A stretch of 44,370 bases of DNA from a virus (Duplodnaviria > Heunggongvirae > Uroviricota > Caudoviricetes), in the IMG/VR virus record IMGVR_UViG_3300045988_005581; one strand, written 5' to 3'. Positions 1 to 44,370 of this stretch are shown here, in pieces; the first letter of the stretch is position 1; each line of letters begins with the position of its first letter. The notes under the pieces were generated by a model. That model saw nothing but the letters and a program-made list of their open reading frames with translations, ran no database searches and was not told the DNA's origin. The translations under genes and the position numbers were made by a program.

Positions 1-119
1 ATTTTTTTTATCTATTTTCTGTGATGACTAGTTGACTATTATCCTCGACCCTATTATATTTACTTCATCGACAACGAGAACGGAGTAGAGAGAAATGGGC
101 AACGTATCGACGATAGAAA
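1..119. repeat. Terminal duplication (copy 1), identical to 44252..44370
   Basis: Bases 1..119 match 44252..44370 exactly by eye; the junction lies in the T-run of the terminator at 44231..44260. Implies a unit length of 44,251 bp; the repeat touches both window edges so its true extent is unknown. Confidence 0.9.
32..60 (+). promoter_or_regulatory. sigma70-like promoter TTGACT-N17-TATATT
   Basis: TTGACT at 32-37, 17-bp spacer, TATATT at 55-60; about 35 nt upstream of the first ORF (ATG 95). Confidence 0.5.
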
Positions 120-1570: not shown

Positions 1571-1730
1571 CATCAACGCAGCAATCGAAGAGGCAATCTG
1601 GCGCCGCTACAACGGAGAGCAGCAGCGGCACTTCTGCCTGGTGCAACGCGGCAACATGGTCGCCGTAGTGCAGGACCGCGATAACAAATATCCGAATGCG
1701 ATGTGGACGACGAGGAATTTCTTAAGATGA
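1536..1730 (+). CDS. hypothetical protein (start uncertain, non-ATG)
   Basis: ORF-track ORF; no ATG near the 5' end, candidate GTG at 1560; stop 1728-1730 overlaps ATG 1727 of the next ORF. Confidence 0.4.
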   Translation: MGLCGVETVFSDINAAIEEAIWRRYNGEQQRHFCLVQRGNMVAVVQDRDNKYPNAMWTTRNFLR

Positions 1731-1963
1731 TTACCAGCATTCCTAACCTTATTAAAGAATTTGGCACGATGGCGGAGACGTGCCGACAAACAGGCCTCAA
1801 CGAAATGACGATTGCGAAGTACAGCAAAGACGTGAAATGCGAGCGCCATGTAATTTATAATAACCGCCTTATGACGCACGTTAAGACAAGCCCGGTGTTA
1901 TTCACGCGCCGTGGTATCACTAAAACAGAGCAACGCATTGCGCGAGAGGAGAGCGGGGAATGA
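1727..1963 (+). CDS. hypothetical protein, possible HTH (78 aa)
   Basis: ATG 1727 in ATGA overlap with upstream stop; tool start 1703 is GTG. Segment TGLNEMTIAKYSKD is weakly HTH-like. Confidence 0.5.
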   Translation: MITSIPNLIKEFGTMAETCRQTGLNEMTIAKYSKDVKCERHVIYNNRLMTHVKTSPVLFTRRGITKTEQRIAREESGE

Positions 1964-4191: not shown

Positions 4192-5673
4192 ATGTTAACT
4201 ATGAACGGTCAGAATCAGGGTGTTAAGACAAAACACCGGGAATGGCTGCATCACTTCGATAAATGGCAGAAGGTACGCCACGCTCTTGAAGGCGACCTTA
4301 TCCGCTATCTGCGCAACGTCGGGAAGAACGAGCCTGACCAGACCTACGCAGCACAGCGACAGGAAGAATACGAGAACGGCGCTATCTGCTACAATTTCAC
4401 CAAACGCACGCTGGCGGGGATGACGGGGTCAGTGATGCGCAAAGACCCTGAGCAGATTATCCCGCCTGAACTTGAGTACCTGTTGCACAACGCTGACGGT
4501 TCAGGTGTCGGGCTGTGGCAGCACGCGCAGGATACGCTGATGGAGATTAACTCGATAGGCCGTGGCGGGTTGCTGGTGGACGCCCCGGAAACAGCCGCAG
4601 CAACGGCGGCAGAGCAGAACGCGGGATTATTAAACCCGGTAATCGCATTCTATACCGCGGAGAACATTATCAACTGGAGACTCACCCGCATCGGTTCAGT
4701 GAACCGCGTGACGATGGTTGTATTGCGTGAGGCATGGGAATACTCGGAACCAGGCGCTGAGTTTGAAACAAAATTCGGCGAGCAATACCGCGTCCTTGAC
4801 CTGATTGACGGTCGCTACCGCCAGCGCATCTACCGCTTCGATGCCGAAGGTGGCGCACAGGATGAAGTAATCGAAATCTTCCCGGAACTCGGCGAACAGT
4901 TGCGCGGTAAAATCCCGTTCACGTTCATTGGCGCAAGCAACAACGACGCCACTATAGACGATGCGCCTTTACTGCCGTTAGCTGAGCTAAATATAGGACA
5001 CTTCAGAAATTCGGCCGATGTGGAAGAGGCCAGCTTTATAGTAGGTCAACCGACACTGTTCATTGCCCCCGGCGAGAACATGAGCATGGAGCAGTGGAAA
5101 GAAGCCAACCCACACGGCATACGCATGGGGTCGCGTTCAGGCCACAACATCGGCTCCGGCGGAAATGCGTTTCTGGTTCAGGCGGCGGAAACTAACCTCG
5201 CCAAACAGAACATGCTGGATAAAGAGAATCAGGCCATCCAGATTGGCGCGCAGCTTATCACCCCGACGCAGCAAATCACCGCGGAATCGGCCCGCCTGCA
5301 ACGCGGCGCCGACACGTCAGTCATGGCAACAATAGCACGTAATGTAAGCATGGCGTATACCGATGCGTTGCGCTGGGTTGCGGGTATGCTTGGGCTTAGT
5401 GAAGATACTGAGATTGAGTTCAAGCTGAATATGGAATTCTTCCTGCAACCGATGACCGCTCAGGACCGCGCTCAGTGGATGGCGGATATTAACGCTGGCC
5501 TGCTACCCGCCACCGCTTACTATGCTGCGTTGCGCAAGGCAGGTGTGACTGACTGGACAGATGAGGACATTCAGAACGCTATTGAAGACGCACCTCTGCC
5601 GTTGGGTTCTGTTGCTCAGGTAGCGGGAGAGATTCCGCAGTCGGCGCAGCAACAGGACACCACTCAGCAGTAA
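4192..5673 (+). CDS. portal protein
   Basis: 493 aa directly downstream of TerL, strong RBS AAGAGGA, acidic Gln-rich C-terminus; assignment by size and synteny. Confidence 0.8.
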   Translation: MLTMNGQNQGVKTKHREWLHHFDKWQKVRHALEGDLIRYLRNVGKNEPDQTYAAQRQEEYENGAICYNFTKRTLAGMTGSVMRKDPEQIIPPELEYLLHNADGSGVGLWQHAQDTLMEINSIGRGGLLVDAPETAAATAAEQNAGLLNPVIAFYTAENIINWRLTRIGSVNRVTMVVLREAWEYSEPGAEFETKFGEQYRVLDLIDGRYRQRIYRFDAEGGAQDEVIEIFPELGEQLRGKIPFTFIGASNNDATIDDAPLLPLAELNIGHFRNSADVEEASFIVGQPTLFIAPGENMSMEQWKEANPHGIRMGSRSGHNIGSGGNAFLVQAAETNLAKQNMLDKENQAIQIGAQLITPTQQITAESARLQRGADTSVMATIARNVSMAYTDALRWVAGMLGLSEDTEIEFKLNMEFFLQPMTAQDRAQWMADINAGLLPATAYYAALRKAGVTDWTDEDIQNAIEDAPLPLGSVAQVAGEIPQSAQQQDTTQQ

Positions 5674-5683
5674 GTTCACCTAT

Positions 5684-5704
5684 AGCCCCGAAAGGGGCTT
5701 TCTT
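5684..5704 (+). terminator. terminator-like hairpin between portal and head-morphogenesis genes
   Basis: AGCCCC-GAAA-GGGGCT then TTCTT; probably partial or stabilising. Confidence 0.4.
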
Positions 5705-5709
5705 ATAGT

Positions 5710-6786
5710 ATGCTATTAACTTTAGCGCCACAGGGTTTATCTATGAGCTTACTTACATCCCTAATCAGCCATCAGATATGGCTGCAACGCACCGCATCCG
5801 GTGAAGTGAAAGACCTCACGCCGTTCATTCAGGAGATAAGGGATGAAATCAAACGGCAGGTGCTGTTATTCGGTGACGACGGTCGCAGCACTGCGCGACT
5901 GAATAAACTGTTACGCGACCTGGAAGAAGCACTAACCGGTATTACGGGTGACTGGCAAACAAAGCTAACAGACGACCTTAAGGAACTGGCGGCGTACGAG
6001 GCTGAGTGGAACGTAAAGACACTGACCGCCAACGTAGACGCGGAATTTGTTACGCCTACCGCTGAGCAGGTATGGGCCGCTGCCGAGTTTCAACCATTAT
6101 CATTGAGCGACAAGCCCGTTGATTTCACCAAGCTGATGTCTGGATGGGGCGAAACGGAAGTAGCACGTCTTGTAACTGGAGTTAAGATGGGCTTTGTGCA
6201 AGGTCAAACCACACGGCAGATTGTTAAGAATGTTGTTGGCGCTGGTGGACTAGCCGACATCTCAGAACGTAACGCGACTACGGTAATCCGCACCGCGCTG
6301 TCCCACGTATCCAACGAGGCCCGTAACGAGACGTACCGCCAGAACGACGACATCATCGAGAAATATGAGTGGGTGTCAACTTTGGACAGCCGTACCAGCA
6401 CGATTTGCAGGGCCAGAGACGGAATGACGTGGGAAATCGGTAAAGGTCCGATGCCACCAGCCCATCCTAATTGCCGAAGTACCACTGCACCGGTAATCAG
6501 TTCAGAGTTCGACTTCCTTGATAAAGGCGCAAAACGTGCGGCTAAGGGTGCGTACGGCGGTACTCAGGTAAGCGCAGACACCACCTATTACGAGTTCCTG
6601 AAACAACAACCAGCATGGTTTCAGGACCAGGCGATCGGTCCTGTTCGTGGTAAGATTTTCCGTAACAGCGGTATATCGCCGGAAGAGTTTCGCGTAAAAT
6701 CTGTAGATGGTTTCGGGAATCCGCTTACGCTTAAGCAGATGGCGGAACTCGATAAACGTGTTGCTGATTATCTGAAAGGGGATTAA
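5710..6786 (+). CDS. head morphogenesis protein (Mu F / SPP1 gp7-like)
   Basis: Contains TLDSRTSTICRARDGMTWE, matching the conserved D-x-R-T...C...DG signature of Mu F-like minor head proteins as I recall it; sits after the portal gene. Start could be 5710 or 5740. Confidence 0.8.
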   Translation: MLLTLAPQGLSMSLLTSLISHQIWLQRTASGEVKDLTPFIQEIRDEIKRQVLLFGDDGRSTARLNKLLRDLEEALTGITGDWQTKLTDDLKELAAYEAEWNVKTLTANVDAEFVTPTAEQVWAAAEFQPLSLSDKPVDFTKLMSGWGETEVARLVTGVKMGFVQGQTTRQIVKNVVGAGGLADISERNATTVIRTALSHVSNEARNETYRQNDDIIEKYEWVSTLDSRTSTICRARDGMTWEIGKGPMPPAHPNCRSTTAPVISSEFDFLDKGAKRAAKGAYGGTQVSADTTYYEFLKQQPAWFQDQAIGPVRGKIFRNSGISPEEFRVKSVDGFGNPLTLKQMAELDKRVADYLKGD

Positions 6787-7251: not shown

Positions 7252-7278
7252 AGGCCCCATTAAGGGGCCTTAGTTTTC
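7252..7278. terminator. bidirectional intrinsic terminator
   Basis: AGGCCCC (7252-7258) / GGGGCCT (7264-7270) with 5-nt loop; T-runs on both strands. Lies between convergent genes. Confidence 0.65.
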
Positions 7279-7480
7279 AACGGAATCTTGTGTTTAAATC
7301 CTGCTCGTGGACGACCCTCAGAACAGTGTCATAATCCCCGTATCTTCCAGGTTCAAATACATCTAATGCCTTGTAAGCAGACATTGCGTCAGGGAAAACC
7401 TGCAGAACCTTTTTAACACGGCACAAGTCACCGTCGAACTCTTCATCGAACTCTTGAACTACTTCGCAAATTGCATACAT
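7277..7480 (-). CDS. hypothetical acidic protein (67 aa), solitary antisense gene
   Basis: ATG at 7480 (minus) preceded by GGGGGTG RBS and a sigma70-like promoter; terminated by the bidirectional terminator. Confidence 0.5.
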   Translation of the reverse strand: MYAICEVVQEFDEEFDGDLCRVKKVLQVFPDAMSAYKALDVFEPGRYGDYDTVLRVVHEQDLNTRFR

Positions 7481-7507
7481 TTTTCACCCCCTGCTTAAGT
7501 TAACTGA

Positions 7508-7536
7508 ATAGTACCCTATTATATTGGGGTGTGCAA
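7508..7536 (-). promoter_or_regulatory. sigma70-like promoter TTGCAC-N17-TACTAT (minus strand) with embedded dyad
   Basis: On the minus strand: TTGCAC (7531-7536), 17 bp, TACTAT (7508-7513); dyad AATAG-N4-CTATT at 7507-7520. About 25 bp upstream of the ATG at 7480. Confidence 0.5.
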
Positions 7537-7602
7537 ACTATTTATTTACTTATTCCAGTTATTCCGCTCAATTGTAAATGTTGGAATAAACTATTCGAAT
7601 AG

Positions 7603-7631
7603 TTGACTTTTCACTAAAAATATGATAAGCT
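7603..7631 (+). promoter_or_regulatory. promoter P_A: TTGACT-N17-TGnTAAGCT (extended -10)
   Basis: TTGACT 7603-7608, 17-bp spacer, TG 7623-7624, TAAGCT 7626-7631. Identical core promoter at 39890..39918. Preceded by the perfect palindrome ACTATTCGAATAGT (7590-7603). Confidence 0.6.
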
Positions 7632-7637
7632 CCACCT

Positions 7638-7838
7638 GAGCTTGTGAAGTATGAACAAGCGACCGCGGCGCGGGCAGGTAACGGAGCGGGACGTAAGTCC
7701 TGAGTGTAGTTACGCTGACGCGTTCGGAAGGGCCATACTCTATTGCTTGTGTAAAAAGTAACAGGTTTACTTAGATTACGCCGTTTCTATGTTTAAATGA
7801 TAAGGACTAGCGCCCTGCTTTAAGGCAGGGCTTTACTT
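7638..7838 (+). ncRNA. candidate short terminated transcript / structured leader (element A)
   Basis: Region between P_A and the terminator at 7812..7838; shares a 43-nt identical 5' arm (7626-7668) and a 23-nt identical 3' arm (7723-7745) with element B at 39913-40032. Not shown to be transcribed. Confidence 0.35.
7812..7838 (+). terminator. intrinsic terminator 18 nt upstream of the spanin start
   Basis: GCCCTGC (7812-7818) / GCAGGGC (7825-7831), loop TTTAAG, then TTTACTT. Confidence 0.6.
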
Positions 7839-17019: not shown

Positions 17020-17061
17020 AACATAACTCCTGATTTGAGATAACATCGTTGGTGTAAGTGA

Positions 17062-17090
17062 ATAGTACGCTATTATATCAGGGTGTGCAA
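17062..17090 (-). promoter_or_regulatory. sigma70-like promoter TTGCAC-N17-TACTAT (minus strand) with embedded dyad
   Basis: TTGCAC = 17085-17090, TACTAT = 17062-17067 on the minus strand; dyad AATAG-N4-CTATT 17061-17074; near-identical to the element at 7505-7540. Confidence 0.5.
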
Positions 17091-17197
17091 GTAGTATGTT
17101 AGAATAATTTTGCGCCTAGTGTCGCACACGAAAAGCGGGTGGTTCCCGTCTGGCGCATTTCCTTTAACCAGTAACCTCTTAACCAAAGGATTAAAGA

Positions 17198-22601: not shown

Positions 22602-25159
22602 TCCTGCACTACACGCGAAACGCTGATGGCGCTTTCAACCGTACAAAACACGTCGGGATGCCGATGGAGTTTGTCGTTAACCGTATCCCGGGCGGCGTTC
22701 CGGTACGCGTCTATCTTGGCGAGATTGGTGATGATACTGATGTTACAGACGACTTCGACGCGCTCAAAGACGAGGACGCCGTGTACCACATTATTGAGGG
22801 CGCTGGCGGCGGCATTGGCGACGCCATCGGGAGTGTATTCAGTTTCATCCTTAAGCCAATCGCCAAATTGTTCGGGCTAAACACAGCGGCTAACGCTAAT
22901 TATTCCGCTACCAACAATCAGGCTACGTCGCCTAACAACAGTCTCACCGACCGCTCAAACAAGCCACGACCTTATGAGCGTTCCTATGATATCTGCGGGA
23001 CAGTGCAGACTATACCCAATGACCTGATGCAGACGTATAAGGTGTTTAACGCCACGGGGGCGCTTATTGAATATGCGTACTATGACGCCGGTCGAGGGTA
23101 TCTGCATATTGAGGAAGACGGTGTAACTGAGGCAGATACCCGAATCAGCGAGATAACTGGCTCGTCGGTGACGGTGTATTCTCCTTACACTTCGCCGAAT
23201 AACACCAGCACACCACAATTGCATATCGGCGACCCTATAGACCAGAAATTGTACGTTACATTTAAAAACGCCGATGTCGATGGCGCTGTTCTTCCCGCCC
23301 CTAATGATATCGCTATAGACGTGCAGGACTACACTGTCCAGCGGCAGGGAACAACCGGCGTTGTAGTAGGCGATGACGCTGGTTTCGATGAGTTTTTGGC
23401 GGTCGGGGACCTGGCATACTTCGATAACGTATATGCAGATACAACCCCAGGGTCTTTGGGTAATGAGGTTAACCTGGACGGGAGGTACACGGTTCTTTCT
23501 GTTAGTGAAACGACCCTTATTGTGGACGTCAGTACAAATCAATCAATATGGAACCAGCTAGGAACATCTGTATGGTTTATAGGTGAAGAGGGCAACCATC
23601 TTATAGGCCCGGCGGATACTTACGCGGCTTCCCTCTCTGAATGGGCGTACATCACCCGCGGAACCGTCGACCGTGTTGTAGCCAATGTGGCTGCCAGCAA
23701 CGGCATGTACAAATACAACGGCGACTATAACCGCGCTTCAGTGACAGTCGAACTGCAATACCAGATGGTAGATGAATTGAAACAGCCTGTAGGTGACATA
23801 TTTACCGTACGAGGAACCGTAACAGGCCGGAACACGGATTACACAGGGATTACTCTTTACGGAAGTTTACCAACTGCTTCCAGATTCCGCGCCCGTATGC
23901 GTCGTGTTTCGGACACCGATAAAGATTTTGAAGGTACTGTTAGCGACGAGGTTACTTTCACTAATCTGTATGGGCAGTCGCTGGACACAACCCCCCACTA
24001 CGGCAACCGTACTACCGTACACTGCGCCCGTAAACAAACCCCACGTGCAGCCGAGGTGTCCGAACCGGAACTGCGCATGATTGCAACCGAGATGTGCTAC
24101 AAATACTTAGGTAACGGCGTATTCGATACGGTAATGACACCGAACACTCAGGCCGTGCAGTCGCTAATCAGGCTGGCGCGTGACCCTGTGGTGGGTAATC
24201 TGGAACTGACAACGGCAAATATGGACAAGTTACTTGCCGTGCAGGAAGAAATTGAGTCGTATTTTGACAGTGAATTAGCCGGGCAGTTCTGCTACACATT
24301 CGACGACTACGACACAACCATGCAAGACATCGTTCAGACCATCGCGGAAGCCGTGTTTTGTACGGCATACCGTAAAGGTGCTGATATTATGCTGCGATTC
24401 GACCGTCCTGTTGCGGGGCCTGAGATGGTTTTCACCCACCGCAGCAAAACGACCGGTACGGAGAAATGGACGCGCACGTTCAACGATTCGACAACCTACG
24501 ATAGCCTGTCGTTCTCGTACATTGACCCGGATACAAACGTACAGGAGACGATTTATATCCCGGAAGAACTCGGCGCGAACACCGAGGAGTACGAATCGAA
24601 GGGTGTACGTAACTATCAGCAAGCGTACTGGCTGGCGTGGCGTCGCTACCAGCGCAACACGTTAAGTAAAGTTGTCGTAGAGTTCGAAGCTACCGAAGAA
24701 GGCGCTCTCGCTACTCCCGGCGGCGTAATCAGTGTGGTTAAAGGCTCGCGTATCGCGCCGCAGGATGGTTATGTTGTTGCCGTCAATGGCCTTACGCTGA
24801 CGCTGTCTCAGCCTGTTACGTTTACTCCTGGTGATGACCATTCCATCATTCTTAAGAAGCGCGACGGCTCTGTGCAGAGTATTTCTGTTATCAAAGGAAG
24901 CCACGACCGCGAAGTGATTATGCTCTCCGCGCCGGAGGAGGCAATCTACACGGGGAATAGCGCACTAAAAACTGAGTTTTCATTCGGCAACGAAGCAAGG
25001 CATAATGCTCAGAAGATAGTTGTTTCTTCAATCGACCCCGGCGACGACCGCACGGTCAAGATTACGGGCTACAACTATGACGACGGATTCTATAAATACG
25101 ACGGCGTCGCGCCATACGGCAGCAGCTTCTCCGACGGATTCAGCAATGGTTTTAATTAA
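22592..25159 (+). CDS. tail tip / central tail fibre protein (J-like)
   Basis: 855 aa, largest tail-tip gene, follows the K-like gene. Tool start is TTG; first in-frame ATGs at 22658 and 22664, so the start is uncertain. Confidence 0.7.
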   Translation: MAIILHYTRNADGAFNRTKHVGMPMEFVVNRIPGGVPVRVYLGEIGDDTDVTDDFDALKDEDAVYHIIEGAGGGIGDAIGSVFSFILKPIAKLFGLNTAANANYSATNNQATSPNNSLTDRSNKPRPYERSYDICGTVQTIPNDLMQTYKVFNATGALIEYAYYDAGRGYLHIEEDGVTEADTRISEITGSSVTVYSPYTSPNNTSTPQLHIGDPIDQKLYVTFKNADVDGAVLPAPNDIAIDVQDYTVQRQGTTGVVVGDDAGFDEFLAVGDLAYFDNVYADTTPGSLGNEVNLDGRYTVLSVSETTLIVDVSTNQSIWNQLGTSVWFIGEEGNHLIGPADTYAASLSEWAYITRGTVDRVVANVAASNGMYKYNGDYNRASVTVELQYQMVDELKQPVGDIFTVRGTVTGRNTDYTGITLYGSLPTASRFRARMRRVSDTDKDFEGTVSDEVTFTNLYGQSLDTTPHYGNRTTVHCARKQTPRAAEVSEPELRMIATEMCYKYLGNGVFDTVMTPNTQAVQSLIRLARDPVVGNLELTTANMDKLLAVQEEIESYFDSELAGQFCYTFDDYDTTMQDIVQTIAEAVFCTAYRKGADIMLRFDRPVAGPEMVFTHRSKTTGTEKWTRTFNDSTTYDSLSFSYIDPDTNVQETIYIPEELGANTEEYESKGVRNYQQAYWLAWRRYQRNTLSKVVVEFEATEEGALATPGGVISVVKGSRIAPQDGYVVAVNGLTLTLSQPVTFTPGDDHSIILKKRDGSVQSISVIKGSHDREVIMLSAPEEAIYTGNSALKTEFSFGNEARHNAQKIVVSSIDPGDDRTVKITGYNYDDGFYKYDGVAPYGSSFSDGFSNGFN

Positions 25160-30093: not shown

Positions 30094-30381
30094 CTAACTA
30101 TAATAGTTTGCTATTAGGTCGTCAACCTGTTTAAACGAACCAACGACAAAAACATTTGCACCGCGTTTACGCATCCGCTCATGCTCACGTAACTGGTGCG
30201 GGTCTGGCTTCGTGTTTTCGTCTTTCTTAACCTCGACAAACCAGATGATACCGCCAGGGAGAATTACCAGCAGGTCGGGAGCGCCGGAACGTCCTTCGTA
30301 GGAGAGCTTGCGAACGAGGCCGCCGAGGGCCTCGAATCGCTCTTTTGCGTATTTCTGTATGCGCCCCTCAGGCGTACTCAT
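30094..30381 (-). CDS. VRR-NUC domain nuclease
   Basis: 95 aa with PDLLVILP...VEVKK, the PD-(D/E)xK-type signature typical of VRR-NUC proteins. Confidence 0.7.
   Translation of the reverse strand: MSTPEGRIQKYAKERFEALGGLVRKLSYEGRSGAPDLLVILPGGIIWFVEVKKDENTKPDPHQLREHERMRKRGANVFVVGSFKQVDDLIANYYS
30097..30125 (-). promoter_or_regulatory. sigma70-like promoter TTGACG-N17-TATAGT (minus strand) with embedded dyad
   Basis: On the minus strand: TTGACG = 30120-30125, TATAGT = 30097-30102; dyad AATAG-N4-CTATT 30102-30115. Confidence 0.5.
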
Positions 30382-33450: not shown

Positions 33451-33505
33451 TTCTCGATTCCTCAGTTTTCAGTTTACTCCGGGAGCTGCCCGGCCAGTGA
33501 TTAGA

Positions 33506-33534
33506 ACTATAATAGCTAACTATTCAGGTGTCAA
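33506..33534 (-). promoter_or_regulatory. sigma70-like promoter TTGACA-N17-TATAGT (minus strand) with embedded dyad
   Basis: On the minus strand: TTGACA = 33529-33534, TATAGT = 33506-33511; dyad AATAG-N4-CTATT 33511-33524. Confidence 0.55.
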
Positions 33535-33723
33535 ATAAAATTTCGCAATACGGACTATGTTCTCGAAATCATTCATATCAACGGGTTCGAATTCATCCTC
33601 CACATGGTTGTATCGCACCATCGTGCCGTTCAGGAACGTAAACGATTCCGAATGGATATAACCGCCCCAGCGCCATATCATCACAAAATCTTTATCTGTG
33701 GGCATTTCATTTACTTGAATCAT
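33520..33723 (-). CDS. hypothetical protein (67 aa)
   Basis: ORF-track ORF; start overlaps the nuclease gene stop; 3' end overlaps the promoter of the SSB gene. Confidence 0.5.
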   Translation of the reverse strand: MIQVNEMPTDKDFVMIWRWGGYIHSESFTFLNGTMVRYNHVEDEFEPVDMNDFENIVRIAKFYLTPE

Positions 33724-36055: not shown

Positions 36056-36283
36056 TTACTCGCCGTCGCCTTCTGTAAGGCTATCGTCTATTAATTCAAA
36101 TTTACCGTTTGGGTGTTGAATAGCTTCTTGCCCGCAATGGTCGCAGACAACAAGTTTATCGAACCCATCAAACTCGTCCCCGACTACGCAAGAAAGTACA
36201 AATTTATGTTTTGTGCACACTTCCTGCGATTCTCCGAAAATTGCTAGAAAACCTTTAGCTATGGCTCCCGTTATTGTGTTCAT
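36056..36283 (-). CDS. hypothetical zinc-ribbon-like protein (75 aa)
   Basis: Two Cys pairs (C..C ... CDHC); first gene downstream of the minus-strand promoter at 36312..36340. Confidence 0.5.
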   Translation of the reverse strand: MNTITGAIAKGFLAIFGESQEVCTKHKFVLSCVVGDEFDGFDKLVVCDHCGQEAIQHPNGKFELIDDSLTEGDGE

Positions 36284-36311: not shown

Positions 36312-36340
36312 ACTATAATAGCGAACTATTCACATGTCAA
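36312..36340 (-). promoter_or_regulatory. sigma70-like promoter TTGACA-N17-TATAGT (minus strand) with embedded dyad
   Basis: On the minus strand: TTGACA = 36335-36340, TATAGT = 36312-36317; dyad AATAG-N4-CTATT 36317-36330. A second imperfect dyad AATAT-N4-CTATT lies at 36361-36374. Confidence 0.55.
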
Positions 36341-36404
36341 TGGGCTTTTCTAAAATAATTAATATGGTACTATTCACATATCAACTGACTAAGGAGTAAT
36401 TGAC

Positions 36405-36620
36405 ATGCAACCATCTGAACTAGGTATCCGTGTAGAACAACGCCGTAAAGAACTCGGCATCTCCCAGCGCAGTTTGGCGGCCCTGACCGGCGTTTCCCAG
36501 GGCGTGATTAACCAACTGGCACTTGGAGTAACTCAGGACGTCCGCTCGGCAACGCTGTTCAAACTGGCGGAAGTTCTGGAAGTAGACGCCAAGTGGCTGG
36601 CGTTAGGTGAAGGGGCTTAA
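36405..36620 (+). CDS. Cro/CI-type HTH transcriptional regulator (XRE family)
   Basis: 71 aa with LGISQRSLAALTGVSQGVINQL helix-turn-helix; RBS AAGGAG; the only rightward gene inside the leftward replication module, divergent from it. Confidence 0.75.
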   Translation: MQPSELGIRVEQRRKELGISQRSLAALTGVSQGVINQLALGVTQDVRSATLFKLAEVLEVDAKWLALGEGA

Positions 36621-39390: not shown

Positions 39391-39603
39391 TTACTTAACG
39401 CCCGCAATCCACGCACGCTCCGAAGCGTAGAAACGACACTTACTTAAAGCCTCGATTGGCATCTTAATAATGCGTGTCGGTTCCAACAAATGATTAGGCT
39501 TACATATTTCCGCATAGAATCCGCTGTCAGTAATTTCCGGCGCAAACTTAAACCGGTATTTAACTTTACAGTTTTCAAAGTAACAACCCATACGCCCAAT
39601 CAT
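39391..39603 (-). CDS. hypothetical protein (70 aa)
   Basis: ORF-track ORF, ATGA-coupled to the upstream HTH gene. Confidence 0.5.
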   Translation of the reverse strand: MIGRMGCYFENCKVKYRFKFAPEITDSGFYAEICKPNHLLEPTRIIKMPIEALSKCRFYASERAWIAGVK

Positions 39604-39782
39604 TTCACGTTCTCCTTAATCCATGCTTCAACTTTATTACGGTCAAATGTTCCTGGTAAACGGCGACCCATAACCTTAATACAGCAATCAGGGAATTTAC
39701 CGCTGCGCAACCAGTTATTAATTGTTTGACGTGTCACCCCGATACGTTCAGCCACTTCATTCTGTGTCATGTAATGCTGCAT
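39600..39782 (-). CDS. AlpA-like HTH DNA-binding protein
   Basis: MTQNEVAERIGVTRQTINNWLRSGKFP resembles AlpA/excisionase-type HTH proteins; ATG 39782 with AGGAG RBS (tool start 39854 upstream). First gene of the leftward module. Confidence 0.6.
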   Translation of the reverse strand: MQHYMTQNEVAERIGVTRQTINNWLRSGKFPDCCIKVMGRRLPGTFDRNKVEAWIKENVK

Positions 39783-39813
39783 TTTTATATCTCCTGTTTG
39801 TTTGGTGAAAACG

Positions 39814-39842
39814 AGTATAGGATAGCGTGAATGTAAAAGCAA
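39814..39842 (-). promoter_or_regulatory. candidate promoter TTGCTT-N17-TATACT (minus strand) for the leftward module
   Basis: On the minus strand: TTGCTT = 39837-39842, TATACT = 39814-39819; about 30 nt upstream of ATG 39782. Confidence 0.4.
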
Positions 39843-39889
39843 CCAAAACACCACACAAAGTTACTGATATACAAAAGATGCTAATGGTA

Positions 39890-39918
39890 TTGACTTTTAC
39901 TAAGAAATGTGCTAAGCT
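39890..39918 (+). promoter_or_regulatory. promoter P_B: TTGACT-N17-TGnTAAGCT (extended -10)
   Basis: TTGACT 39890-39895, 17-bp spacer, TG 39910-39911, TAAGCT 39913-39918; same hexamers and spacing as P_A at 7603..7631. Confidence 0.6.
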
Positions 39919-39924
39919 CCACCT

Positions 39925-40160
39925 GAGCTTGTGAAGTATGAACAAGCGACCGCGGTGCGGCAGGAAACGGAGCGGTGCGTCAGCACTGAGTGTAGTGTCG
40001 CTGCCTGCATTCGGAAGGGCCATACTCTATTGTAAATCCCGTCTAAATAACCCAAGTCACTAATAATTAAAAGTTTCTATAGTTGCCGTAAGCAAGGTAG
40101 AGAGTACTTCACTCCGCTGGGGTGGGCTAAAGCCCACCCGCTGCGTTGCGTACTCTTTAA
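39925..40160 (+). ncRNA. candidate short terminated transcript / structured leader (element B)
   Basis: Paralogue of element A: identical 43-nt and 23-nt arms flanking a 54-nt core with about 12 substitutions and one indel; followed by GC hairpin GGTGGGC-TAAA-GCCCACC (40121-40138) and a U-rich stretch. Not shown to be transcribed. Confidence 0.35.
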
Positions 40161-40198
40161 AGAAACAAAAGAATCACAACGGCAACGTAACTATTATC

Positions 40199-40227
40199 TC
40201 GCACACCCCAACATAATAGGATACTAT
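40199..40227 (+). promoter_or_regulatory. sigma70-like promoter TCGCAC-N17-TACTAT with embedded dyad
   Basis: TCGCAC 40199-40204, TACTAT 40222-40227; dyad AATAG-N4-CTATT 40215-40228; same element as 7505-7540 in reverse orientation. Confidence 0.5.
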
Positions 40228-40261
40228 TCACTTATCGGAACGAGACAGAGGAGTGATGGTT

Positions 40262-40447
40262 ATGTTTAAGAAGGGTCAGTTGGTTAAAACAAAACGCGGC
40301 GGACAGTACGTAATAGTTACCCAGAATGAGGATGAATATAGTACCGCTGTAGACGTATGGGGTCTTGTACGAAAGAAACATGGTTACGCTTTCAGAGATA
40401 ATTTAACACTCATCGGCAACAATTTTAAATTCAAAGGGGTGAAGTGA
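40262..40447 (+). CDS. hypothetical small protein (61 aa)
   Basis: ATG 40262 with GAGGAG RBS at correct spacing (tool start 40253 is GTG); first ORF of a translationally coupled chain. Confidence 0.55.
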   Translation: MFKKGQLVKTKRGGQYVIVTQNEDEYSTAVDVWGLVRKKHGYAFRDNLTLIGNNFKFKGVK

Positions 40448-41333: not shown

Positions 41334-41362
41334 TTGCACACTGGGATAGAATAGACTACTAT
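41334..41362 (+). promoter_or_regulatory. sigma70-like promoter TTGCAC-N17-TACTAT with embedded dyad
   Basis: TTGCAC 41334-41339, TACTAT 41357-41362; perfect dyad GAATAG-N4-CTATTC at 41349-41364. Confidence 0.55.
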
Positions 41363-41392
41363 TCATTTACACAGACGGGAGGAGAGACAGAG

Positions 41393-44230: not shown

Positions 44231-44260
44231 CCCGGCCCTGACCCAGCCGGGATTTTTTTT
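44231..44260 (+). terminator. strong intrinsic terminator after the lysis cassette
   Basis: CCCGGC (44231-44236) / GCCGGG (44246-44251), 9-nt loop, then eight consecutive T (44253-44260). Confidence 0.75.
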
Positions 44261-44370
44261 ATCTATTTTCTGTGATGACTAGTTGACTATTATCCTCGAC
44301 CCTATTATATTTACTTCATCGACAACGAGAACGGAGTAGAGAGAAATGGGCAACGTATCGACGATAGAAA
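44252..44370. repeat. Terminal duplication (copy 2), identical to 1..119
   Basis: Exact repeat of the window start, including the promoter at 32..60 and the first 25 nt of the first ORF. Confidence 0.9.

Follow-up and report, generated by a model that had tools for sequence, protein, structure and literature searches.

What is the purpose of a 14-bp inverted repeat that sits inside one promoter after another of a virulent phage genome? This question is raised by IMG/VR virus record IMGVR_UViG_3300045988_005581, whose 44,370 bases (the whole stretch analysed, hereafter the window) amount to the complete genome of a virulent siphophage of E. coli, from the genus Kagunavirus, subfamily Guernseyvirinae. 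An initial annotation of this DNA had described a family of near-identical promoters with an embedded dyad, AATAG-N4-CTATT, and had suggested that one dimeric regulator controls them together. We find that the dyad largely exceeds chance expectation and that its arms are conserved across two phage genera, in several registers relative to the promoter. From these comparisons we propose, with middling confidence, that it is the operator of one dimeric phage repressor, most likely a small XRE protein encoded at 36405..36620, which would turn down seven transcription units.

An over-represented dyad within promoter-like elements

Seven exact copies of AATAG-N4-CTATT are present in the window, against 0.06 expected from shuffles of its sequence; when up to one mismatch is tolerated, the numbers become 12 and 1.14. 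Among 5-Nx-5 palindromes it ranks first for over-representation in the window, the runner-up having 3 to 4 copies. The dyad is 14 bp long, and the centres of its half-sites are 9 bp apart. All eight positions given in the initial annotation carry the expected sequence, namely the seven exact dyads and an imperfect one at 36361..36374, and the two recurring promoter sub-types it distinguished are borne out as well. We call class A the TTGCAC/TCGCAC-N17-TACTAT elements (four sites) and class B the TTGAC(A/G)-N17-TATAGT elements (three sites, Table 1). The GGGTGTGCAA that had been pointed out downstream of some copies is merely the reverse complement of the class A -35 region, TTGCACACCC.

The elements are placed as promoters heading transcription units should be: at all eight sites, a leader of 27-55 nt separates the element from the Shine-Dalgarno sequence and start codon of the first gene of a cluster. 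Two of them, 7508 and 17062, head minus-strand gene islands, which need a promoter of their own, and 7508..7536 is the sole conserved promoter candidate for the minus-strand island within the plus-strand head module. In Salmonella phage Jersey (KF148055), the orthologous elements are annotated in GenBank as sigma-70 promoters. The sigma-70 likeness itself, which had been extended to all sites, is uneven. Class B elements are the best sigma-70 matches that a promoter scan finds in the region (10-11/12), whereas class A elements match poorly (7/12), with a 17-bp spacer and a -10 that has the required A (position 2) and T (position 6). [quoted passage not shown] Contrary to the earlier statement, they are not all purely intergenic: 30097..30125 and 33506..33534 overlap the 3' ends of open reading frames (ORFs) 30094..30381(-) and 33520..33723(-), the former site being inside the last ~10 codons of a VRR-NUC ORF.

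Conservation and register of the dyad

Conservation was examined in related phages, in which promoters were located by orthology of the downstream gene, not by the motif. At the SSB promoter, 13 genomes out of 14 have both arms exact, among them a Klebsiella isolate and two Serratia phages beside Kagunavirus and Jerseyvirus. The 4 bp at the centre vary (TTAG, TTAA, TACT, AATA), and the bases from the -35 to the arm, as well as the whole upstream flank, have diverged. The same contrast is seen within the window, where the three class B copies differ at 8/8 non-arm positions of the spacer and at 0/10 arm positions. The embedded dyad thus appears to be under its own selection, as its arms are invariant in Kagunavirus and Jerseyvirus (and, at the SSB promoter, in Serratia phages) while centre, spacer and flanks vary. 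Loss of symmetry with retention of the hexamers, which the initial annotation had named as a possible refutation, was found only in the distant phage St162, whose SSB promoter reads TTGACA-CTGAATTATTAAACTAT-TATCTT; symmetry is kept in both genera. No replacement dyad was evident in St162 by eye and palindrome counting.

The position of the dyad relative to the promoter varies. Class A has the dyad centre near -12.5 and class B near -18.5, 6 bp farther upstream; the Jerseyvirus Imm promoter (TTGCAT-N17-TATTAT) is intermediate, near -15.5, and weaker copies are found near -33.5. When the motif is oriented as TGAATAG-N4-CTATTAT, class A and class B carry it in opposite directions relative to transcription. 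Since it occurs in either orientation and in several registers, the dyad is separable from the -35 and -10 hexamers. Its left arm (-25..-21 in class B, -19..-15 in class A) lies in the spacer, where sigma-70 makes no known base-specific contact. Nor is the dyad required for promoter activity, as good dyad-less promoters exist in the same genomes: 39814..39842 in the window, which serves as an internal control, and those annotated at 5569 and 38860 in Jersey. The first of these, on the minus strand ahead of the HTH_17/primase-helicase operon, also contradicts the earlier statement that every early-type promoter contains a dyad.

The base next to one arm differs by genus, and does so at nearly all sites at once, with TG before AATAG in 35 of 49 Kagunavirus dyads and TT in 17 of 18 Jerseyvirus dyads. 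A scan of IMG/VR with TGAATAG-N4-CTATTAT gave, among the matches listed, single chance matches in unrelated contigs, those with several matches being mostly contigs of 41-45 kb. Dhillonvirus and Eiauvirus relatives are without the AATAG dyad and have many copies of TGCAACCAA instead. This 9-mer is present 11 times in Dhillonvirus jat, 14 times in Eiauvirus eiAU-183 and 8 times in Serratia phage Otaku, and Serratia phage Smarc3 has 6 copies of a related 10-mer, GTTGGTTGCA. Copies of both are often found in promoter spacers or in pairs, and such repeats may be a second, lineage-specific regulatory site.

Imperfect dyads were also found. The one preceding the XRE gene, at 36361..36374, is kept in all compared Kagunavirus genomes; an alternative promoter for this gene, TTCACA-N16-TAAAAT, is at 36329..36356. 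The dyads at 27..40 (repeated at 44278..44291) and 7598..7611, at promoters directed toward structural genes, are possible weak sites; we rate them no higher because the -35 hexamer TTGACT imposes part of their match. At the position of the former, Jerseyvirus has AATAG-TTGA-CTAGT. A further one-mismatch dyad, TATAG-TATG-CTATT at 5704..5717, comes right after a terminator (5684..5699), spans the start codon of a head-morphogenesis gene (5710) and is present in 5 of 7 Kagunavirus-group genomes compared.

Table 1. Promoter-like elements, dyads and candidate DNA-binding proteins of the window. Fractions are matches to the sigma-70 consensus.
Feature	Position	Strand	Context
Class A promoter-like element TTGCAC-N17-TACTAT	7508..7536	-	Heads lone 67-aa ORF 7277..7480(-); perfect dyad 7507..7520, centre near -12.5
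Class A promoter-like element TTGCAC-N17-TACTAT	17062..17090	-	Heads Imm (superinfection immunity), repair exonuclease, polynucleotide kinase and dNMP kinase; perfect dyad 17061..17074
Class B promoter-like element TTGACG-N17-TATAGT	30097..30125	-	Heads small ORF and helicase/primase-like genes; perfect dyad 30102..30115; 10/12
Class B promoter-like element TTGACA-N17-TATAGT	33506..33534	-	Heads SSB/annealing protein and DNA polymerase; perfect dyad 33511..33524, centre near -18.5; 11/12
Class B promoter-like element TTGACA-N17-TATAGT	36312..36340	-	Heads 75-aa ORF through exonuclease operon; perfect dyad 36317..36330; 11/12; divergent from XRE gene
Class A promoter-like element TCGCAC-N17-TACTAT	40199..40227	+	Heads rightward small-gene operon (from 40253); perfect dyad 40215..40228
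Class A promoter-like element TTGCAC-N17-TACTAT	41334..41362	+	Heads rightward genes through holins and endolysin; perfect dyad 41350..41363
Imperfect dyad AATAT-GGTA-CTATT (AATATGGTACTATT)	36361..36374	+	Precedes XRE gene; overlaps extended -10 TGGTACTAT (36365..36373)
Dyad-less promoter TTGCTT-N17-TATACT	39814..39842	-	HTH_17/primase-helicase operon; conserved in Kagunavirus and Jerseyvirus
Promoter TTGACT-N17-TATATT	32..60, duplicated at 44283..44311	+	Heads small genes, then terminase
Imperfect dyad ACTAG-TTGA-CTATT	27..40, repeated at 44278..44291	+	Over -35 of promoter 32..60, centre near -33.5
Promoter TTGACT-N17-TAAGCT (TG-extended)	7603..7631	+	Spanin/scaffold/capsid operon
Imperfect dyad AATAG-TTGA-CTTTT	7598..7611	+	Over -35 of promoter 7603..7631, within 16-bp palindrome AACTATTCGAATAGTT (7589..7604)
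XRE/HTH_3 protein, 71 aa	36405..36620	+	Best candidate for a dyad-binding dimer
HTH_17 winged-helix protein, 60 aa, BldC/excisionase type	39600..39782	-	Rival candidate binder

Two other readings of the class A elements were rejected. As bidirectional promoters, they offer on the opposite strand the -10-like hexamers TATATT/TATGTT, with only poor -35 partners, and the opposite-strand TCGATA belongs to a leader motif, ATCGAAACGAGAGG, found again in sense orientation elsewhere. The TATAAT-like hexamer that they contain (ATATAATAG) is not a credible -10 either, having no usable -35, and a TG extension in one of the four sites. Leaders downstream of dyad promoters (17055(-), 30089(-), 36305(-)) share ACACCAAC(G/A)A or ATCGAAACGAGAGG, some 9-20 nt past the -10. 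A hairpin, CCGGGCAGCTCCCGG, is located at 33479..33493 (-) in the 5' leader of the SSB/annealing-protein gene and is conserved in Kagunavirus and Jerseyvirus; in Serratia phages, this position is taken by a different, G+C-rich sequence.

Candidate binding proteins and alternative explanations

By Pfam scans of 30 selected small ORFs, three DNA-binding proteins were recognised: the XRE/HTH_3 protein (36405..36620), the HTH_17 protein (39600..39782) and, by a weak match, a NinH-like protein (1703..1963). The first had been labelled Cro-like, and correctly so. It matches HTH_3 with 46 bits (cut-off 23), its best sequence matches in the PDB include 434 Cro (E = 1.9e-4) and 434 repressor, and its model (mean pLDDT 78) is structurally closest to 434 Cro (2cro, TM 0.71-0.77), a protein of the same length, 71 amino acids. 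Members of the 434 Cro family bind inverted repeats of 14-18 bp as dimers. The XRE gene is alone on the plus strand, flanked by the perfect dyad 36317..36330 of the divergent class B promoter and by the imperfect dyad 36361..36374; in Jerseyvirus, both dyads beside the gene are imperfect. Kagunavirus variants with as little as 74% identity all have the same recognition helix, GVSQGAINQLALGVTQDVR. The helix reads SQG.. in Kagunavirus and Serratia phages and SQS.. in Jerseyvirus, which parallels the G or T flanking the arm in the three lineages. Serratia phages have the SSB-promoter dyad and the XRE gene, and no HTH_17 gene.

For the HTH_17 protein, the earlier label AlpA-like was loose: this is a 60-amino-acid winged helix of the BldC/excisionase type, not a Q-like AlpA antiterminator. 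The nearest folds to its model are BldC, RacA and excisionases, and it has no coiled coil. Large protein searches returned only close relatives of the XRE and HTH_17 candidates. Judging from sequences and models, the XRE protein is most likely the first candidate for binding the dyad and the HTH_17 protein the second, an order that is insecure.

According to our proposal, a dimeric phage-made protein would bind the dyad over the spacer and -10 of seven sigma-70 promoters, and block RNA polymerase sterically. A single protein would in this way turn down the DNA-metabolism, accessory and rightward early/lysis units together, as Cro does at lambdoid early promoters. Placed between a perfect dyad at the divergent promoter and a weaker dyad at its own, the XRE gene would limit its own expression. 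An occluding repressor is preferred to an activator or to a polymerase contact because a symmetric 14-bp site lies over the spacer and -10 in several registers: a 3-bp shift would turn the site to another face of the helix, which should be tolerable for a repressor and usually not for an activator. The timing of expression in phage vB_Eco_K1B4, also a Kagunavirus, fits an early-made regulator. RNA sequencing (RNA-seq) placed a helix-turn-helix gene, whose identity is unconfirmed, among only four earliest-peaking genes, in a coarse time course (5-120 min) that gives gene-level timing only (PMC12645636). Shut-off of the dyad promoters is not clear from these data.

Several observations weigh against the proposed Cro-like circuit. 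First, Imm and DNA polymerase, whose genes both follow dyad promoters, are placed among the late-peaking genes by the same RNA-seq study, unlike what early shut-off would give (PMC12645636). Second, the dyad has identical core bases (10) in Kagunavirus and Jerseyvirus, yet the XRE proteins of the two genera share only 48% identity and differ at positions likely to contact bases (N to T, Q to H). Third, St162 has an XRE homologue but no dyad family, and the distribution of the HTH_17 protein, limited to Kagunavirus and Jerseyvirus, fits that of the strong dyad family better than the XRE distribution does. Fourth, the right arm CTATT overlaps or abuts the -10, and ATAATAG is itself -10-like, so that contacts with RNA polymerase explain part of the conservation. 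Finally, the 7/12 match of class A elements is below the generic scan threshold.

The third point leads to an explanation that we consider unlikely, though deserving attention, in which the dyad would be an operator but bound by the HTH_17 protein, made together with the primase-helicase from the dyad-less promoter 39814..39842. Every Kagunavirus and Jerseyvirus genome examined has this gene, and its 443 phage records all belong to that group. It is absent from St162, Dhillonvirus and Eiauvirus, all without the dyad family; a profile search of these phages and of Serratia phages gave no homologue better than E = 0.27. The protein is 82% identical between the two genera, thus conserved like the dyad, and its own promoter being dyad-less, it could be a constitutively made early regulator. 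Among its fold neighbours, RacA binds a 14-bp palindrome, which agrees with such a role, whereas BldC and excisionases typically bind head-to-tail direct repeats rather than dyads, which does not. The recognition helix of the HTH_17 protein, however, varies (GVTRQT, GVTRRT, GVSPMT) among phages with identical dyads, one of them, LM02P1, having 8 exact copies. Moreover, Serratia phages have an exact dyad at the SSB promoter without the HTH_17 gene, and no dyad lies beside this gene.

The fourth point can be extended into a reading that dispenses with a dedicated regulator, and which also strikes us as rather unlikely. The seven promoters would be paralogous cassettes, alike by descent and recombination, and the palindrome a by-product of -10-like sequences (TACTAT, TATTAT, ATAATA) that help RNA polymerase to bind or melt DNA. 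The shared sequence does exceed the dyad, reaching ~35 bp in class A with similar leaders, and CTATT and ATAATAG are placed and composed as this reading predicts. The cassettes also seem mobile. The first gene behind a dyad promoter is often non-orthologous among genomes while the cassette is retained (in the window, 7277..7480, 36056..36283 and 40253..40447), and Jerseyvirus RA114 has one Kagunavirus-type (TG-flanked) cassette, at 24724. Against this explanation, the left arm is invariant although it lies in the spacer, without known sigma-70 base contact, where neighbouring bases vary. The motif persists in either orientation and at three registers, change across genera has saturated the upstream flanks but not the arms, and strong dyad-less promoters exist in the same genomes.

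Mobility of the cassettes is compatible with a Cro-like operator as well. Tentatively, and with more doubt than for the operator itself, we suggest that the promoter-operator-leader unit may be a portable cassette, so that any gene placed behind it would join the Cro-like timing circuit. The near-identical copies of 35-60 bp may then serve as recombination joints for shuffling accessory genes within and between Kagunavirus and Jerseyvirus. T4-type phages are known for repeated promoter cassettes (PeSL elements) that flank variable genes, and in a similar way the near-identical cassettes described here precede non-orthologous small genes. The likeness concerns the cassettes, and the embedded dyad is not known to have a counterpart in PeSL elements.

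It is quite improbable that the dyad binder is an activator, or a sigma-appropriating factor, needed by weak class A promoters, which would then be delayed rather than repressed. The poor sigma-70 match of class A (7/12) would be accounted for, as would the late peak of Imm and DNA polymerase after the helix-turn-helix gene in the Kagunavirus RNA-seq (PMC12645636). MerR-type activators likewise bind dyads between -35 and -10, and the HTH_17 candidate has a MerR-like winged helix. However, MerR-type promoters have spacers of 19-20 bp, against 17 bp here, the HTH_17 protein has neither coiled-coil dimerisation helix nor effector domain, and the register is variable. Known activator geometries do not accommodate a dyad centre that overlaps the -10 and moves by 3 and 6 bp, and class B promoters, being near-consensus, need no activator.

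Still less probable is a host (enterobacterial) transcription factor reading the dyad and tying phage early genes to host physiology. Phages of E. coli, Salmonella and Klebsiella share an identical core dyad although both phage candidates diverged, as such a factor would predict. On the other hand, the arm-flanking base shifts in concert from one phage genus to the other, the motif is missing from relatives that share these hosts (St162, Dhillonvirus jat), and we know of no E. coli factor with this consensus, those of FNR, CRP, Fur, MntR, RcsAB and SlyA being different. Least probable of all is a loading site for a Q/AlpA-type antiterminator, analogous to the Q- and AlpA-binding elements (QBE/ABE) between -35 and -10: the left-arm position in class B (-25..-21) does resemble that of the Pseudomonas AlpA-binding element (-25..-20, PMC9371919) and the genome has many internal terminators, but known elements are asymmetric, in fixed register, and need a sigma-dependent pause signal, when the dyad is symmetric, of variable register and with no evident pause. 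Pseudomonas AlpA, which recognises an asymmetric 6-bp element and has eight helices, with residue numbers reaching at least 142 (PMC9371919), is also far larger than the 60-amino-acid HTH_17 protein, and no Q-like protein was recognised among the small ORFs scanned.

Genome setting, published reports and significance

The phage has ~97% identity to Escherichia phage vB_EcoM_SHAK7858 across the replication region. An exact 119-bp repeat at both ends of the window (1..119 and 44252..44370) indicates a circularly closed or terminally redundant assembly, with 44,251 bp of unique genome. Gene order is that of annotated relatives: plus-strand packaging, head and tail genes, broken by two minus-strand islands, are accompanied by a leftward DNA-metabolism block (27.3-39.8 kb) and a rightward small-gene and lysis block that runs from 40.2 kb across the window ends into terminase. 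When the ORF list is read against the relatives' annotations, the large ORFs correspond to terminase, portal, tape measure, tail, polymerase, helicases and exonucleases.

Some other features of the genome were recorded. A direct repeat of ~150 bp is found at 7603..7745 (+) and at about 39872..40030 (+), each copy comprising a TG-extended promoter, TTGACT-N17-TAAGCT, and ~120 nt of conserved transcribed sequence ending with GGAAGGGCCATACTCTATTG. In the first copy, an intrinsic terminator (7812..7831) and the spanin/scaffold/capsid operon follow, a layout resembling promoter-qut-terminator or put-RNA antitermination. The repeat has an RNA fold z of -2.0 and no Rfam family match, and among compared genomes the second copy is found only in the phage studied here and SHAK7858. 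An Rfam match to the int-alpA RNA motif (RF02996), barely above the gathering threshold (36.6 bits, cut-off 35.8), covers 17109..17173 (+), in the space that separates the class A promoter 17062..17090 from the tail chaperone gene. Finally, no convincing gene occupies the ~400 bp (39783..40198) that lead from the HTH_17 gene to the class A promoter at 40199: ORF 39757..40023 has no Pfam or PHROG match. Annotation of this region differs from one relative to the next, its sequence is highly variable among genomes, and it includes a strong hairpin, GGGTGGGCTAAAGCCCACCC.

The motif itself has been published as a promoter. In Kagunavirus fBC-Eco01, seven sites detected by PHIRE, with consensus tgAATAGTa-ccTATTat-T, were called phage-specific promoters of a phage RNA polymerase (PMC9825357), and the paper on phage Golestan likewise reports seven PHIRE promoters. 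The fBC-Eco01 sites and the sigma-70 promoters of Jersey are the same elements, treated there only as promoters, with no discussion of dyad, register or regulator. The label of phage-polymerase promoter does not suit them, as no RNA polymerase gene is annotated in three related genomes; only part of the ORFs of the window were searched against Pfam. We found no literature treating the dyad as an operator or naming its regulator. The operator reading is therefore new but ordinary, and what it describes is most likely a real, conserved and conventional control circuit, as far as sequences can tell.

The nearest known systems are lambdoid. As in phage 434, whose Cro has 71 amino acids and 14-bp operators (ACAA-N6-TTGT), a small HTH_3 protein goes with a 14-bp inverted repeat overlapping the core promoter. 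As for lambdoid Cro, the regulator gene is beside a divergent promoter pair with sites of unequal quality, and by analogy the predicted role is the same, an early turn-down in lytic growth. There are differences. Half-sites are arranged as 5-N4-5 here and as 4-N6-4 in 434, with another sequence, and single putative operators are distributed over seven to eight promoters genome-wide instead of forming tripartite OR/OL clusters. The phage being virulent, there is no CI partner or lysogeny module.

Among the phages put forward for therapy and biocontrol of E. coli and Salmonella, Guernseyvirinae (Kagunavirus, Jerseyvirus) rank with those isolated most often, and they also serve synthetic biology as small chassis; how they regulate their genes has hardly been studied. 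General concepts of gene regulation are unchanged by a dyad circuit in Kagunavirus. If our reading is correct, the literature would need correction for sites now called phage-polymerase promoters, and a clean Cro-type circuit would be kept in a strictly virulent phage without a CI partner. Should one protein of 71 amino acids and one 14-bp site control most non-structural units, they would provide a simple handle for engineering the timing of expression in these phages.

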